IMG/VR virus record: IMGVR_UViG_3300045988_006728
Source of the DNA: a virus
Lineage: Duplodnaviria > Heunggongvirae > Uroviricota > Caudoviricetes
Direction: 5' to 3' (one strand)
Length of the DNA stretch: 64,000 nt
The position numbers and the translations under genes are program-made. Of the stretch, positions 5,884 through 29,461 are shown in pieces; the stretch's first letter is position 1, and each line of letters starts with the position of its first letter. Under the pieces are notes generated by a model. That model was not told where the DNA came from. It saw only the letters and a program-made list of their open reading frames with translations, and did no database searches.

Positions 5884-7485
5884 ATGGACTTAAATGCTGT
5901 TAAGCAGAAGCGAGTGGAAGATGTTAGGAAAGTCCTAGCTGGAGAGTTGGGGCTTTCTGATGAAGTAAAAGAAATTATTAAATCATTCGGTAAAGACCCC
6001 TCTAAATTCCTTCCAACTCAAATTCTGACTTTATTAAGATACACACCAGACCAAGTTCGCCTTATCTTTAAATTGATGACTGATAAGAACTATGTAGCCC
6101 CTCAGCCGGGTTCTCAAGAGGTCTTTTTAAATACTAATGCTGACTTGGTTCTCTATGGTGGTGCTGCTGGTGCTGGTAAGACTGCCGCATTGTTAATGGA
6201 CTCTTTAAGATTTATTGAAGACCCTAACTATAATGCTGTATATTTCCGTCGAAATACAACACAGTTACAAGGTGGTTTATGGCCTGCTGCAAAGAAACTA
6301 TTTGGTAAGTTTGGTGGGATTCCTCACGAGCAGAAAATGACTATCACATTCCCTTCTGGGGCAACTATCAAGTTTACCTACCTAGAACTTGAAAAGCACG
6401 CTGAAGGTCATCAGGGTATTGAATACTCAGCTATTTACTTTGACGAAGGTACACACTTCTCTGCTTCACAGATTTCATACCTACAAACCCGTCTACGTTC
6501 TGGTGCTGAAGGCGATTCATACATGAAGATTTCCATGAACCCAGACAGAGACCACTTTATTTACGATTGGGTAGAGCCATTCTTAGATGAAGAAGGCTAC
6601 CCAGACCCTGAAAAATGTGGTCGTATTCGTTGGTATGTAATGAACGATGGCGTGATGGTTTCTGATTGGGAGAGAGACAAGATTCTTGAAATGTTCCCCC
6701 TTGAGATTCCTCAAACATACACCTTTATTTCTGGTACGATTGATGATAACCCAATCCTTGACTTCTTAGAGCCTAAGTACCGTGGTAAGCTGGAAAACAA
6801 CACTCCTTTAAACGTTGCAAGACTTCGTTTCGGTAACTGGAAGGCTCGTGCAGAAGGTTCAAACTATTGGCAAAGACAATGGTGTGAAATTGTTGATTCA
6901 CTCCCAGAAGATGTATTTGATGTTAGAGCATGGGACTTAGCAGCAACTTTACCATCTGAGATTAACCCTAATCCAGACTGGACAGCAGGTGTTAAGATGG
7001 GTAAATCTAAAAAAGACGGTTGCTATTATATCATTGATGTAGTAAGATTTAGAGATAGACCCTCTGGAGTCGAAACACAAATTAATTTGACTGCTGAAAG
7101 TGACGGTAAGCGAACTGGTATTTTTATCCCTCAAGACCCAGGCGCTGCTGGTAAATCCTACGCAACATCCCTCATCAGGAAACTTGCCGAGAAAGGTTAT
7201 CGAGCAAGAGCCAAACCAACAAATAAAGATAAAGTTACCCGCTTTGCGGGATTTTCTGCTGCTTCTGAAGCTGGACTTGTAAAAGTCTTGAGAGGTAGTT
7301 GGAATGAAGCTTACTTTCAAGAGCTTGAAGGCTTTTGTGGTGATGGCAAAACTAAAGATGACCAAGTGGATGCTACCAGTGATGCTTTCAACAGTCTTAA
7401 CGAAGTTAAATTATTCAAGCCACCATCAATGGGCGCTCACACAGACTTAGTGAGGGGAAACCCATATGAGGGGCTTAGACGTTGA
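5884..7485 (+). CDS. Terminase large subunit
   Basis: Walker A LYGGAAGAGKT and a C-terminal nuclease-like region; GGAGG RBS before ATG at 5884 (the track ORF begins at 5869). Confidence 0.8.
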   Translation: MDLNAVKQKRVEDVRKVLAGELGLSDEVKEIIKSFGKDPSKFLPTQILTLLRYTPDQVRLIFKLMTDKNYVAPQPGSQEVFLNTNADLVLYGGAAGAGKTAALLMDSLRFIEDPNYNAVYFRRNTTQLQGGLWPAAKKLFGKFGGIPHEQKMTITFPSGATIKFTYLELEKHAEGHQGIEYSAIYFDEGTHFSASQISYLQTRLRSGAEGDSYMKISMNPDRDHFIYDWVEPFLDEEGYPDPEKCGRIRWYVMNDGVMVSDWERDKILEMFPLEIPQTYTFISGTIDDNPILDFLEPKYRGKLENNTPLNVARLRFGNWKARAEGSNYWQRQWCEIVDSLPEDVFDVRAWDLAATLPSEINPNPDWTAGVKMGKSKKDGCYYIIDVVRFRDRPSGVETQINLTAESDGKRTGIFIPQDPGAAGKSYATSLIRKLAEKGYRARAKPTNKDKVTRFAGFSAASEAGLVKVLRGSWNEAYFQELEGFCGDGKTKDDQVDATSDAFNSLNEVKLFKPPSMGAHTDLVRGNPYEGLRR

Positions 7486-17141: not shown

Positions 17142-25157
<8,016 letters not shown>

Positions 25158-25159
25158 TA

Positions 25160-26347
25160 ATGGCGGTAGGTGAAATTCAAATTAGTGCCTTGCCTCAAGC
25201 AGCCTTACCAATTGACCTTAGTGATATCTTCCATCTTAAGCAGGGTATTGAGGATAAGAGATGTACTCTTGAGCAATTACTTGCTCCACACTCAAGCCTA
25301 AGAAATAACCCTCATGGTGTTACTAAAACACAAATTGGTTTAGATAACGTTATCAATGCTCTTCAGTTAGTTGCTGCAAATAACTTATCAGACGTTACTA
25401 ATGTAGCTCAGGCAAGAGCAAATCTACAGATTATGTCTTCAGAAGAGGTTAATAATCTTGTTCAACAGCATATTCAGGACAAGAGCAACCCACATAATAC
25501 AACTAAGGTACAGGTAGGATTGAGTAATGTTCAGAACTGGACAACATCTAACCTTTATAACGAAGATGCAGATAAGTATGCTACAGCAAGAGCAGTAAAT
25601 AACTTGTACAAGGCTGTTCAGGCTTCCTATCCAGTAGGTACTATCCATCTTTCCATGAACTCTGCAAACCCTTCTACATATTTAATTTGTGGAGGAACTT
25701 GGGAGTTAGTTTCAAAAGGTAGAGCATTGGTTGGTTATGACTCTGATACAAGACCAACAGGCTCTGTATTTGGTGCTTCAACTGTCACTTTGTCAGTTAA
25801 TAACATGCCACAACACTCACACTCTGTGTCTCTTAGTGGTGGTGGTCACACCCATAATGCAACGGTGTCAATTTCAGCTTTTGATTATGGAACTAAGACT
25901 ACCAACTCTTTTGACTATGGAACAAAGACCACTAACACGACTGGTAACCACAACCATGTGGGCAGTGGGTCAACAAATGCGGCTGGTGCTCACAACCATA
26001 GATTGACCTATGAAGCAGGTGGTGGTTTATCGGAAAGACCTGCAATGGTTTGGTCTACAAGGAATGACCAATCATGGTACTCAGCAGATGCTGTCTGTGA
26101 AGTCGCTGGTTCACACACTCACTCTTTCAGTGTTACCACTAACACGACTGGTAACCACAGCCACACGGTTGGTATTGGTGCTCACAGCCACACGGTTGGT
26201 ATTGGTTCACATACACACAATGGTACTGTAACAGTTTCTTCTTCTGAGCATACGCATAGCGGGAACACTAACAGTATTGGTGGTGGACAAGCTTTTAACA
26301 TTGAGCAGCCATCCTTCGTACTGTATGTATGGCAGAGAACAGCTTAA
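25160..26347 (+). CDS. Tail fiber protein with His-X-His repeat tip domain
   Basis: 395 aa; repeated HTHS/HSHT motifs and in-frame tandem DNA repeats; C-terminal motif shared with the next gene. Confidence 0.65.
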   Translation: MAVGEIQISALPQAALPIDLSDIFHLKQGIEDKRCTLEQLLAPHSSLRNNPHGVTKTQIGLDNVINALQLVAANNLSDVTNVAQARANLQIMSSEEVNNLVQQHIQDKSNPHNTTKVQVGLSNVQNWTTSNLYNEDADKYATARAVNNLYKAVQASYPVGTIHLSMNSANPSTYLICGGTWELVSKGRALVGYDSDTRPTGSVFGASTVTLSVNNMPQHSHSVSLSGGGHTHNATVSISAFDYGTKTTNSFDYGTKTTNTTGNHNHVGSGSTNAAGAHNHRLTYEAGGGLSERPAMVWSTRNDQSWYSADAVCEVAGSHTHSFSVTTNTTGNHSHTVGIGAHSHTVGIGSHTHNGTVTVSSSEHTHSGNTNSIGGGQAFNIEQPSFVLYVWQRTA

Positions 26348-26393
26348 TTTCTTTACAGGGGCTTGATAGCCCCTTTTAAGAGGAAAATTTATA

Positions 26394-28781
26394 ATGGCAG
26401 ATTACAAGTTGAGTGAATTAAACTCAATCAATACAATCCGTTCAGATGACCTTCTTCATGTCAGAGTTAAAAAGAGACCTGAAATGCTGGGTGATGAAGA
26501 CCGTCGAATGACCTATCAAGACTTCTTAGCATCTTTTAAACTTGAAAGGTTTGTTCAGATTGCTGGTAGCACTATGACGGGTGACTTAGGAATTGTTAAG
26601 TTACTTTATGGTGGTAAGGTAGTATTTAACCCAACAGGCTCTTCTGAGATTACTATTGGGGATGTTTTAAAGACTTTTAAAATCAACGCAAACGGCCTTA
26701 GATTAACTATTGCAGATGCTTCAAGGTCGGCAACTGTTTATCATACTCTGAATAAGCCAAGCCCTAATGAGCTTGGGATGAGAACTAATGAAGAGAATGA
26801 TGCAAGATATGCAAGGTTGGCTGTAAATAACACCTTTAGAGGCACTCAAGCTATTCTCTCTGACAATGAAGCTCTTATTGCTAAGAATATTACACAAGGG
26901 ATGCCACTCTATATTCGTGGTCAAGATGCAGATGGTACTAACAGGTGGTATCTAGGTAATGATAACAAGGGTACAGACAATCTTGTTTTAAAAAACGTTA
27001 AATCTGGTGCATATGTAGCTATTTTAGCTAACCTAATCTCCGTGAACAAATCAATCCAAATCACTGGGCAAGTTCAACCTTCTGATTGGACTAACTTAGA
27101 TGCTAGGTATTTTACTCAGACAGCAGCTAATCAGAGGTTTGCACAGTTAGCTGGTAATAATACCTTTAGAGGCGTGAATACATTTAATCAAATCCTATCA
27201 ATTAAGACGAATAGTGCAGCCTTAAGGTTAAAAAACACTGTAGCTAATGGTGCACTGTACATTAAAGCCGAAGCTAATGATGGCTCTGGTAAGTGGTATG
27301 TAGGTAATGGTGATAATACACCTGCTGTATTAATCCACAACTATACGTATGGTTCTAATCTTAGACTCGACAATGGTTATGTTGAGGTTAATAAGCAACT
27401 TAAAGTCGTTGGTCAAGTTCAACCTTCTGATTGGACTAACATTGACTCTAGATATATTCCGGCAGGAACTTTGAGTAATCTTGCCAAGCTGAGTGATGCA
27501 AACACTTTCAGGTCTACACAGGTTATCAATCTGAATGGCTCATTGTTACAGCTAAAGAACACTACACAAGACAGAGAGCTTTACTTTGCTGGCCATAATG
27601 CTGATGGTGTTAGAAGGTGGTACATCGGTAATGGGGAACCATCCAACCCAACAAGATTTACTATCCGCAACGACAGAACTGCAACTACGCTTTATATGCA
27701 AGACGATTTCTTGTTGGATAAAACTGTCAGAATTACTGGTCAAGTTCAACCTTCAGATTTCTCTAACTTAGATGCTAGATATTTCTTAAAAACAAAACTG
27801 TTAAACCAATCTTTAATGACAAGGACAGCTAATAGACTGGATGACCCATCATCATTCAACAAAGATTGTTCAGGGTTTGTAAGAAACAACGCTATTGAGC
27901 AGGGTCTGAAAGATTTAGCCATCCATGTAGCACATTCTGCTGGTATTGCTCATGCCAGAGGTATTGCTTTTACATATGGGTCTAAAGGTCTTGATGTCTT
28001 CACATACGCTTATGGGTCAGATGGAGCATATGTTGGAGAGGCACAGTTGTATTCAACGGCATTTAAACCAACCCCTTCAGGTATTGGTGCATATACTAAA
28101 GCTGAAACTGACCAGAAGATTGCACAGGCAGTAAGTGACTCTACAGACCTTAATAAAATCTATCCAGTAGGTATTGTGACATGGTTTAACAGCAATGTTG
28201 ACCCTAATACAGCACTTCCTGGTCTAACTTGGACGTACCTGAACAATGGTGTTGGTAGAACTATCAGAATTGCAGCAGCAAACGGTTCAGATGTTGCTAC
28301 AACTGGTGGTTCAGATTCTGTAACGTTATCTGTTGGCAACTTACCATCACACACCCATAGTTTCTCTGCTACCACTTCATCTTTTGATTATGGTACGAAG
28401 AACACTAATAGCACTGGTGGTCATACTCACTCTGTAAGTGGCACAACAAGTGCTGCTGGTAAACACGCTCACCACTTAGGTCTGCTATTGGTTAATGGTG
28501 GTGATGCTCAGTACGGTTATACAACTGTTAGCAATAACAAGACGAGAACTCTTGACTGGCTTGACAGAACTGATAACAAGTTCCCTAACACTAACACAAC
28601 TGGTAACCATACACACACATGGTCTGGTACTACAAGTAACACTGGTGCTCACACCCACTCTGTAGGTATTGGTGCTCACACCCATACAGTTAGGGGTAAC
28701 ACTGGTGGTACAGGTTCTGGTTCAGCATTTAGTGTCACTAACCAGTTCTACAAGTTGATGGCTTGGGTGAGAACTGCTTAA
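26394..28781 (+). CDS. Long tail fiber protein with three internal repeats and His-X-His tip domain
   Basis: 795 aa; three roughly 100-aa repeats each containing NTFR...DG..RWY.GN...QVQPSDW(F)...LD(A/S)RY; C-terminal HTHS repeats. Confidence 0.7.
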
Positions 28782-29430: not shown

Positions 29431-29461
29431 AAGGCTCCTTTTTACGGGAGCCTTTTTTGTT
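29431..29461. terminator. Bidirectional rho-independent terminator
   Basis: aggctcc-tttttacg-ggagcct with T-runs on both sides, between convergent operons. Confidence 0.6.

Follow-up and report, generated by a model that had tools for sequence, protein, structure and literature searches.

The 64,000-nucleotide (nt) stretch analysed here (the window), IMG/VR virus record IMGVR_UViG_3300045988_006728 of the Caudoviricetes, carries between positions 25160 and 28781 exactly two adjacent + strand open reading frames (ORFs), ORF A (25160-26347, 395 amino acids, aa) and ORF B (26394-28781, 795 aa). These are very probably the receptor-recognising short and long tail fibres of a Felixounavirus, each with a tip of the T4 gp37 type in which repeated units set the length of a needle and the head is exchanged as a cassette. 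Felixounavirus comprises the Felix O1-like myophages that infect E. coli, Salmonella and Shigella. A megablast search with the region matched 238 phage records, nearly all of them from this genus, with a top identity of 96.6%. ORF A is 97% identical to many Felixounavirus proteins in the protein clusters and belongs to the PHROGs tail fibre family phrog_2097 (1.2e-136), while ORF B falls in the tail fibre family phrog_4277 (E = 0) and contains three Pfam gp37_trimer stretches in its shaft (1.4e-57). Both by sequence and by position they are the orthologues of the Felixounavirus short and long fibre pair, gp26 and gp27 of Escherichia phage Bas63 and gp74 and gp75 of phage VpaE1.

The assignment of the tips rests first on direct matches to a solved structure. 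Searching the PDB with phmmer, ORF A aa 146-367 matched the T4 gp37 tip 2XGF (chain residues 18-228) with E 2.6e-26 and ORF B aa 641-774 matched the same entry with E 4.2e-20; weaker matches to the C-terminal domain of T4 gp10 were confined to the collar (ORF A aa 144-220). The two window fibres also match each other, with 37% identity between ORF A aa 157-346 and ORF B aa 590-766 (E 9e-23). It had been predicted from the sequence that both fibres end in repeated His-X-His (HxH) motifs of the T4 gp37 needle type, and both parts of this are borne out. ORF A has nine such motifs (H219, 230, 264, 278, 319, 333, 342, 351 and 364) and ORF B six (H653, 677, 691, 739, 753 and 762), far above shuffled sequences of the same composition, for which the means were 1.4 and 0.47 and of which none in 20000 reached nine and one in 20000 reached six, respectively. 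When the tip of T4 gene 37 was aligned with those of ORF A and ORF B, the T4 motifs at 883, 915, 929, 966, 980, 989 and 998 all found a counterpart in ORF A (219, 264, 278, 319, 333, 342 and 351), and the first six of them found one in ORF B (653, 677, 691, 739, 753 and 762). The two motifs of ORF A left over, H230 in the ascending arm and H364 in the descending arm, are proximal to the collar and have no T4 counterpart. Where the original prediction does not hold is in regarding the arrays as motifs of the tip itself, since they form the stem of the needle, away from the end that contacts the receptor.

In T4 gp37 the collar domain D10 consists of residues 811-881 and 1010-1026, and the needle D11 (882-1009), along which seven iron atoms are held, is inserted into it (PMC6957217). 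The same split collar is found in ORF A, with Pfam Gp10_C covering aa 154-261 (1.9e-18) and a C-terminal AF...W.RTA aligned to T4 AFNYIVRLA, so that the end of the protein, ...QAFNIEQPSFVLYVWQRTA, corresponds to T4 ...IAFNYIVRLA. Because D10 includes residues 1010-1026, the C-terminus that had been noticed in common between the two fibres can be read as the strand that completes the collar. Its predicted pattern stands as far as W-x-R-T-A, which ends both proteins, and an A-F aligned 17 residues from the end; the Q is offset by one residue between them.

By homology to T4 gp37, and as reported for the Bas63 orthologues (PMC12609058), the chain would run out and back, with a variable head at the turn. 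It would emerge from the split collar in the ascending arm of a needle that is trimeric and six-stranded, form a small distal head that contacts the receptor, return as the descending arm, and complete the collar with its short C-terminal strand (...W.RTA). At each HxH the three chains together would surround a metal ion on the needle axis (iron in T4) with six histidines; one axial site per motif predicts nine sites for ORF A and six for ORF B. The 10-aa FDYGTKxTN of the ascending arm and the 9-aa GIGxHxHTV of the descending arm would be the repeating structural units of the needle, whose number sets its length, and since the chain runs out and back both arms would have to change length together. 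The FDYGTK units indeed lie opposite the GIGxHxH units when measured by sequence distance from the centre of the hairpin. By the same measure H264 is level with H333, and distance was therefore not used for assigning individual metal layers.

Trimer formation and metal binding are here assigned by homology, and it could be argued that the HxH arrays are instead a signature of beta-strand packing, with no metal bound and the needle held by hydrophobic and hydrogen-bond contacts. Metal occupancy in these fibres is indeed a prediction from homology, and some lineages swap an ascending HxH for FDYGTK units or lose a His pair, the short fibres of the L020/Bas63 class having seven HxH and the orthologues in Erwinia and Hafnia phages six, so not every needle layer needs histidines. 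We nevertheless regard a metal-free needle as very unlikely. The motifs align one to one with the seven that coordinate iron in T4, and alanine substitution of either H929 or H931, whose counterparts are H278/H280 in ORF A and H691/H693 in ORF B, is lethal in that phage, both residues being essential (PMC6957217). Among 53 homologues down to about 30% identity, 10 of the 18 histidines in the HxH motifs of ORF A are at least 90% conserved, with H351/H353 invariant and H219/221, 319/321, 333/335 and 342/344 making up the remainder. Likewise, nine and six motifs stand against the 1.4 and 0.5 expected from composition.

Which fibre is which follows from the neighbourhood. Bas63 gp23 to gp27 are, in order, wedge 2, wedge 1, the long-fibre platform, the short fibre and the long fibre (PMC12609058). 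On the 5' side of the window fibre genes lie a Baseplate_J wedge protein of 489 aa, a DUF2612 wedge protein of 285 aa and a phrog_4141 protein of 100 aa, and the gene order and the sizes of both wedge proteins match those of Bas63. Because the order is the same, ORF A is the short fibre and ORF B the long one; synteny with Bas63 also makes the 100-aa protein a candidate for the long-fibre platform. The features of both fibres and of the genes around them are collected in Table 1.

Table 1. Features of the two fibre genes and their surroundings, in window coordinates
Feature	Position	Strand	Basis or remark
Long-fibre platform candidate (Bas63 gp25 equivalent), 100 aa	24855..25157	+	phrog_4141, 6.2e-62; synteny only
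ORF A, short tail fibre, 395 aa	25160..26347	+	Orthologue of Bas63 gp26, VpaE1 gp74, Felix O1 'GP37'
ORF A N-terminal part, aa 1-145	25160..25594	+	Baseplate-binding end (by orthology to Bas63, PMC12609058) and two 60-aa repeats
ORF A collar, N-terminal part, aa 146-218	25595..25813	+	Runs up to NNMPQ-H219-S-H221; aligns to T4 gp37 D10 and T4 gp10 C-terminal domain
ORF A ascending needle arm, aa 219-280	25814..25999	+	HxH 219, 230, 264, 278; two 10-aa FDYGTKTTN units
In-frame tandem repeat, 30-nt period (A/S-FDYGTKTTN twice)	25877..25936	+	Tandem Repeats Finder (TRF) 25878-25936, 2.0 copies
25-nt exact direct repeat, TTNTTGNH, flanking the head	25928-25952 (ascending) and 26135-26159 (descending)	+	Offset 207 nt
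ORF A head cassette, aa 281-318	26000..26113	+	Presumed receptor-contacting end; aligns with T4 tip between H931 and H966
ORF A descending needle arm, aa 319-366	26114..26257	+	HxH 319, 333, 342, 351, 364
24-nt exact direct repeat, HSHTVGIG	26156-26179 and 26183-26206	+	Offset 27 nt; 8/8 identical codons
ORF A C-terminal strand returning to collar, aa 367-395	26258..26344	+	...GQAFNIEQPSFVLYVWQRTA; aligns to T4 gp37 C-terminus ...NIAFNYIVRLA
ORF B, long tail fibre, 795 aa	26394..28781	+	Orthologue of Bas63 gp27, VpaE1 gp75
ORF B shaft, three repeats of ~110-115 aa	26754..27833	+	Repeat search; Pfam gp37_trimer, 3 stretches
ORF B collar, N-terminal part, aa 586-652	28149..28349	+	37% identity to ORF A collar/needle; weak Pfam Gp10_C
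ORF B ascending needle arm, aa 653-693	28350..28472	+	HxH 653, 677, 691 (HAHH); one FDYGTK unit
Distal needle and head segment in common with Tequatrovirus gene 37, aa 664-767	28383..28694	+	blastn/blastp against SHBML-50-1 g37
ORF B head cassette, aa 694-738	28473..28607	+	
ORF B descending needle arm, aa 739-764	28608..28685	+	HxH 739, 753, 762
ORF B C-terminal collar strand, aa 765-795	28686..28778	+	
Small gene 3' of long fibre, 65 aa	28860-29057	+	phrog_402, PHROG of unknown function
Second small gene 3' of long fibre, 123 aa	29054-29425	+	phrog_4038, PHROG of unknown function

At the DNA level, the repeats in ORF A are of different ages. The duplication of FDYGTKTTN is real and was detected by TRF, with a period of 30 nt (10 aa; 25877-25906 and 25907-25936), not the 21 nt first proposed. 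Its two copies agree at 5 of 9 codons, where the codon usage of the phage would predict 4.3, with four synonymous differences, and they have no exact stretch of at least 10 nt in common; codon identity at the level of chance points to an old duplication that has been kept by selection on the protein. Both unit types are present in T4, where the ascending arm has TDLGTKTTS and SFDYGTKGTN and the descending arm a pair ending in AIGSHGHTI. The predicted 27-bp repeat also exists (TRF 26149-26218, period 27, 2.1-2.4 copies), with a different phase: GIGAHSHTV, which had been given as occurring twice, is present once (26171-26197), and what is exactly repeated is HSHTVGIG. The 9-aa units of this arm, at 26144-26224, read TTGNHSHTV, GIGAHSHTV and GIGSHTHNG. 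Each of the two exact repeats, of 24 and 25 nt, shares 8 of 8 codons where about 3.5 would be expected (P ~1e-3 each), which indicates recent homogenisation. The long fibre and other lineages have similar exact repeats, 17-45 nt long, on either side of the head.

Such arrays invite the explanation that the 27-nt and 30-nt units are fast contingency repeats, in which slipped-strand mispairing or unequal recombination continuously varies the length of the needle and the geometry of binding. TRF detects both of them, the exact 24-nt repeat at an offset of 27 nt (26156/26183) has all eight codons identical, and the number of units does vary between lineages. Against it stands the constancy of close relatives. 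We counted units in three sets, namely 72 orthologue clusters, 28 IMG/VR loci with both genes, and six large clusters from each of which up to 40 members were read. At 92% identity or above there are 13 clusters, every one of them 395 aa long with nine HxH, and both FDYGTK units were detected in 12 of them, the strict pattern having matched one copy in the remaining one (P0010), whose length is unchanged. The full-length members of the six large clusters were without exception (73/73) at the canonical length of their cluster. The head of ORF A was found in 32 records, all Felixounavirus, and wherever the megablast match also covers the gene start, its distance from that start is the same. Each array has only about two copies, moreover, the FDYGTKTTN copies differing at 4 of 9 codons and a single 24-nt stretch being exact, and the FDYGTKTTN pair is conserved back to T4 with its codon identity at chance level. 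A change in one arm alone would also break the out-and-back register kept in most tips (see below).

The sole apparent case of expansion is that of Salmonella phage vB_SenM-pSJ21 (P0193, UGL60317.1), whose short fibre of 429 aa has 12 HxH and an exact 41-aa duplication, and which we discard as an assembly artefact. Its record (OK539833.1; L031/L032) was circularised inside the short-fibre gene, and the 123 nt at its end repeat the 123 nt at its beginning; because this terminal overlap was left untrimmed, UGL60317.1 has a false 41-aa duplication and three spurious HxH. A tblastn search with the peptide across the duplication junction gave no match, probably as a result of low-complexity masking. 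Altogether, rapid variation in the number of units seems most improbable. The suggestion that the in-frame repeats change receptor-binding geometry by expanding or contracting thus survives for deep lineages, between which unit number differs in a paired manner, and fails for close relatives, in which it is fixed, and as a rapid mechanism.

We favour instead a needle whose length has changed over evolutionary time by paired units. Across lineages, short fibres have 6-11 HxH, nine being the commonest number (50/72 clusters), with 0-4 FDYGTK-type units and 2-6 descending HxH units, and 4-7 HxH are seen in long fibres. The difference between ascending and descending units is +1 in 102 of the 129 tips compared, which represent 21 architectures, and the residue spans of the two arms, which differ by about 14-16 residues, correlate with r = 0.93. 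Paired change of the arms is what an out-and-back needle requires. The gp37 of Tequatrovirus SHBML-50-1 follows the same arithmetic, with one FDYGTK unit and one GIGAHTHTV unit more than T4. Variation between seven and nine HxH in T4-like gp37 proteins had already been noted by Korf et al. 2019 (PMC6563267).

The head, by contrast with the arms, varies greatly. Mean pairwise identity in the genus is, for the short fibre, 0.91 in the N-terminus, 0.82 in the N-terminal part of the collar, 0.65 in the ascending arm, 0.26 in the head, 0.66 in the descending arm and 0.80 in the C-terminal strand; for the long fibre it is 0.87 in the N-terminus, 0.49 in the shaft, 0.83 in the N-terminal part of the collar, 0.70 in the ascending arm, 0.19 in the head, 0.64 in the descending arm and 0.90 in the C-terminal strand. 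Variation of this kind suggests that the head between the arms, and not the repeats, is the part that changes receptor specificity. Since ORF A and ORF B have heads with no relationship to one another, each fibre probably recognises a structure of its own.

Several heads are shared in a way that suggests movement. The head of ORF B is 87% identical to those of the Tequatrovirus gp37 proteins of SHBML-50-1, AV122 and BYEP01 and 83% identical to that of sutha. Over 312 nt (28383..28694) ORF B matches aa 881-983 of the gp37 of Shigella phage SHBML-50-1 with identities of 84% (DNA) and 87% (protein), the rest of the two genes being unrelated, and the edges of this segment are an FDYGTK box and a GIGAHTHTV box. 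Within single phages, one head is common to the short and the long fibre in L012, L014 and L019, and in L019 the short fibre is 91.4% identical in DNA to its own long fibre over 198 nt. Between phages, the long-fibre head of L028 equals the short-fibre head of phage SPJ41 (P0027). In the long fibre of the IMG/VR contig L005 (locus nt ~7197-7471), 275 nt are 94.2% identical to nt 2692-2966 of T4 gene 37, corresponding to gp37 aa 898-989 (90% identical as protein), whereas the rest of this Felixounavirus gene is unrelated. We take the segment as a recent exchange between phage families. In every shared cassette the similarity begins at the FDYGTK box and stops at the GIGxHxHTV box or at the first descending HxH box.

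These patterns would be explained if the head were exchanged as a cassette by recombination at the boxes that code for the units, both within a phage, from one of its fibre genes to the other, and between Felixounavirus and the T4-like phages. Extending this, we lean slightly towards the view that the unit boxes (FDYGTK in the ascending arm, GIGxHxHTV or GNHxH in the descending arm) are portable junctions that also undergo intragenic conversion, with needle length evolving by paired units only; such conversion would explain the exact 17-45-nt repeats that flank the head in many lineages. The T-even adhesins are an established case of exchange at conserved motifs. In the literature examined we found no description of box-based exchange between two fibres or between two phage families. 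As a separate matter, the 10-nt 'cos site' annotated as a misc_feature in the long-fibre coding sequence of KhF2 (KT184314.1, L033 4365-4374) and of XTG1 was considered and set aside, because it looks like an unsupported pattern-match annotation.

Several results weigh against this picture of the fibres and have to be set beside it. The AlphaFold2 (AF2) monomer of ORF A, built from a 53-sequence alignment, has a mean per-residue confidence (pLDDT) of 65.9 and a predicted template modelling score (pTM) of 0.28, with the head at 43-51. The collar is modelled confidently, with pLDDT 83-89 at aa 131-180 and 88 in the last block, and confidence drops to 56-77 by aa 218. A Foldseek search of this model against the PDB returned nothing at E <= 1e-3 and did not retrieve 2XGF, its top match being a weak one to the C-terminal domain of T4 gp10 (E 0.011). 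Poor modelling of the needle and head and the lack of a PDB match are expected of an obligate intertwined trimer modelled as a monomer; with the AF2 monomer only moderate, the fold assignment rests on sequence homology and on the published models of orthologues. The +1 rule fails in 27 of the 129 tips, which look like cases of degenerate units missed by the regular expressions, and the correlation of the arm spans is uncorrected for phylogeny. That the boxes are the actual crossover points is suggested by where similarity starts and stops. Finally, T4 gp37 needs gp38, and a tblastn search of the whole window with the gp38 proteins of T4 and SHBML-50-1 gave a best E of 0.2 and hence no homologue of this chaperone; assembly must therefore differ in some respect from that of T4. 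Dependence on gp38 is an accessory feature of T4 and not of the fold. The connectors gp35 and gp36 likewise gave nothing significant in the window.

The architecture of these fibres was already known, because two studies of related phages had reported the T4 homology, the collar, needle and head, and the variability of the tip. Simoliunas et al. 2015 showed that the C-termini of both fibres of VpaE1 (gp74 and gp75), an orthologous pair, are homologous to the T4 gp37 adhesin, which they described as distantly related (PMC4690856). Bas63 (Escherichia phage JohannRWettstein; Sci Adv 2025), which belongs to the same genus and has the same gene order, was solved by cryo-electron microscopy: both fibres have a collar, an HxH needle and a head, were compared with 2XGF and had their HxH motifs counted, and are most variable at their tips (PMC12609058). 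The long fibre of Bas63 has six HxH, including a histidine-rich motif next to the head (H692, H693 and H695), of which the HAHH of ORF B (H691-H694) is the counterpart. Its short fibre, to which L020 is 98.4% identical, belongs to a 382-aa class with seven HxH and three FDYGTK-type units, whereas ORF A belongs to a 395-aa class with nine HxH and two units, and the heads of both Bas63 fibres are unrelated to those of the window. What our analysis adds is minor, namely that the majority class of short fibres has nine and not seven HxH, that the arms vary by paired units, and that cassettes are common to both fibre genes and to Tequatrovirus gp37.

With domains D10-D11 of T4 gp37 (2XGF; Islam et al. 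2019, PMC6957217), both ORF A and ORF B have in common the split collar, the FDYGTK and GIGAHxHTV units and a C-terminal strand that returns to the collar. They differ in that ORF A adds H230 and H364, that ORF B is without an equivalent of H998, and that the heads are not those of T4; additionally, the window fibres are encoded by single genes and attached to the baseplate, whereas T4 gp37 is the distal half of a jointed fibre of four proteins. SHBML-50-1 gp37 (NC_031085), together with AV122, BYEP01 and sutha, has the same boundary boxes as ORF B. The needle of SHBML-50-1 is longer, with six ascending and five descending units against four and three in ORF B, its gene is followed by gene 38 (tail fibre assembly), and the rest of its gene and genome are unrelated to the window at the DNA level. 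The long-fibre cassette of L005 resembles T4 g37, whereas that of ORF B is of the SHBML-50-1 type, and the short-fibre heads of the two phages also differ. Neither T4 gp10 nor gp12 is known to have a long multi-HxH needle inserted into its collar, and gp12 has a single His-coordinated metal site. The collar domain of these two proteins (Pfam PF21939 Gp10_C; PDB 2FKK) matches the collar part of both window fibres.

The genus is listed among clades that recognise O-polysaccharide (OPS) or lipopolysaccharide (LPS) moieties. The receptor of VpaE1 is the truncated LPS core (PMC4690856), Bas63 requires that the LPS core be intact (PMC8594841), and in T4 the tip residues around 933-959 bind LPS and OmpC (PMC6957217). 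By analogy with these published relatives, the receptor of the window phage may be LPS. Isolation hosts differ with the class of short fibre, phages of the Bas63 class coming mostly from K-12 and those of the window class from LF82, NRG857c, O145, O121 and O1 strains, although this is a correlation only.

Both shafts are themselves repetitive. The 60-aa repeats of ORF A carry NPHxxTKxQxGLxNV at aa 50 and 110 (nt 25307-25351 and 25487-25531). A distant orthologue (P0050, 453 aa) has a third copy of this motif, and the number of shaft repeats in short fibres therefore differs between lineages too. The shaft repeats of ORF B contain 70-nt DNA cores (27043-27112, 27388-27457 and 27715-27784) that are 74-80% identical, with the motifs GQVQPSD at aa 225, 340 and 449 and WYxGN at aa 184, 300 and 408. 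The long fibres of relatives range from about 780 to 870 aa, some ORF starts being possibly over-extended. ORFs in other frames inside ORF A (25731-26006 and 26010-26231) were dismissed as by-products of repetitive coding sequence and not genes.

The fibre genes and the two small genes downstream of them end at a strong bidirectional terminator (29431-29454) that faces a convergent thyA/dhfr unit. For the two small genes Pfam gave no significant family, just a DivIC match below the cut-off. On reading, both products look membrane-associated, the second also with a coiled-coil-like stretch, and neither resembles T4 gp38. On the 5' side of the wedge genes, a 207-aa protein (21484-22107, +) ends in ...NE-H188-T-H190-HYYW; the iron site of the central puncturing protein of Bas63 is an HxH with residue numbers 188/190 (PMC12609058), and by this equality of numbering the window protein may hold an HxH metal site, the third within this structural module. 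Among the database records, an 88,424-bp contig assigned to the archaeon Methanobrevibacter gottschalkii encodes a Felixounavirus short-fibre protein (P0179/P0183), and Felixounavirus fibre genes are also present in the records with the names Campylobacter phage A132 and Staphylococcus phage SA1; these entries are probably contaminant or mislabelled phage sequences.

Since the architecture, the homology to T4 and the variability of the tip are all published, current understanding is unchanged by these results. They are of interest because host range in the Felix O1-like phages, which serve in typing, biocontrol and therapy of Salmonella and E. coli, is determined by these two fibre genes. Delimiting the head as a cassette bounded by boxes (aa 281-318 in ORF A and aa 694-738 in ORF B) shows engineers where to cut for retargeting, and by the rule of paired arms, needle units would need to be added or removed in pairs.

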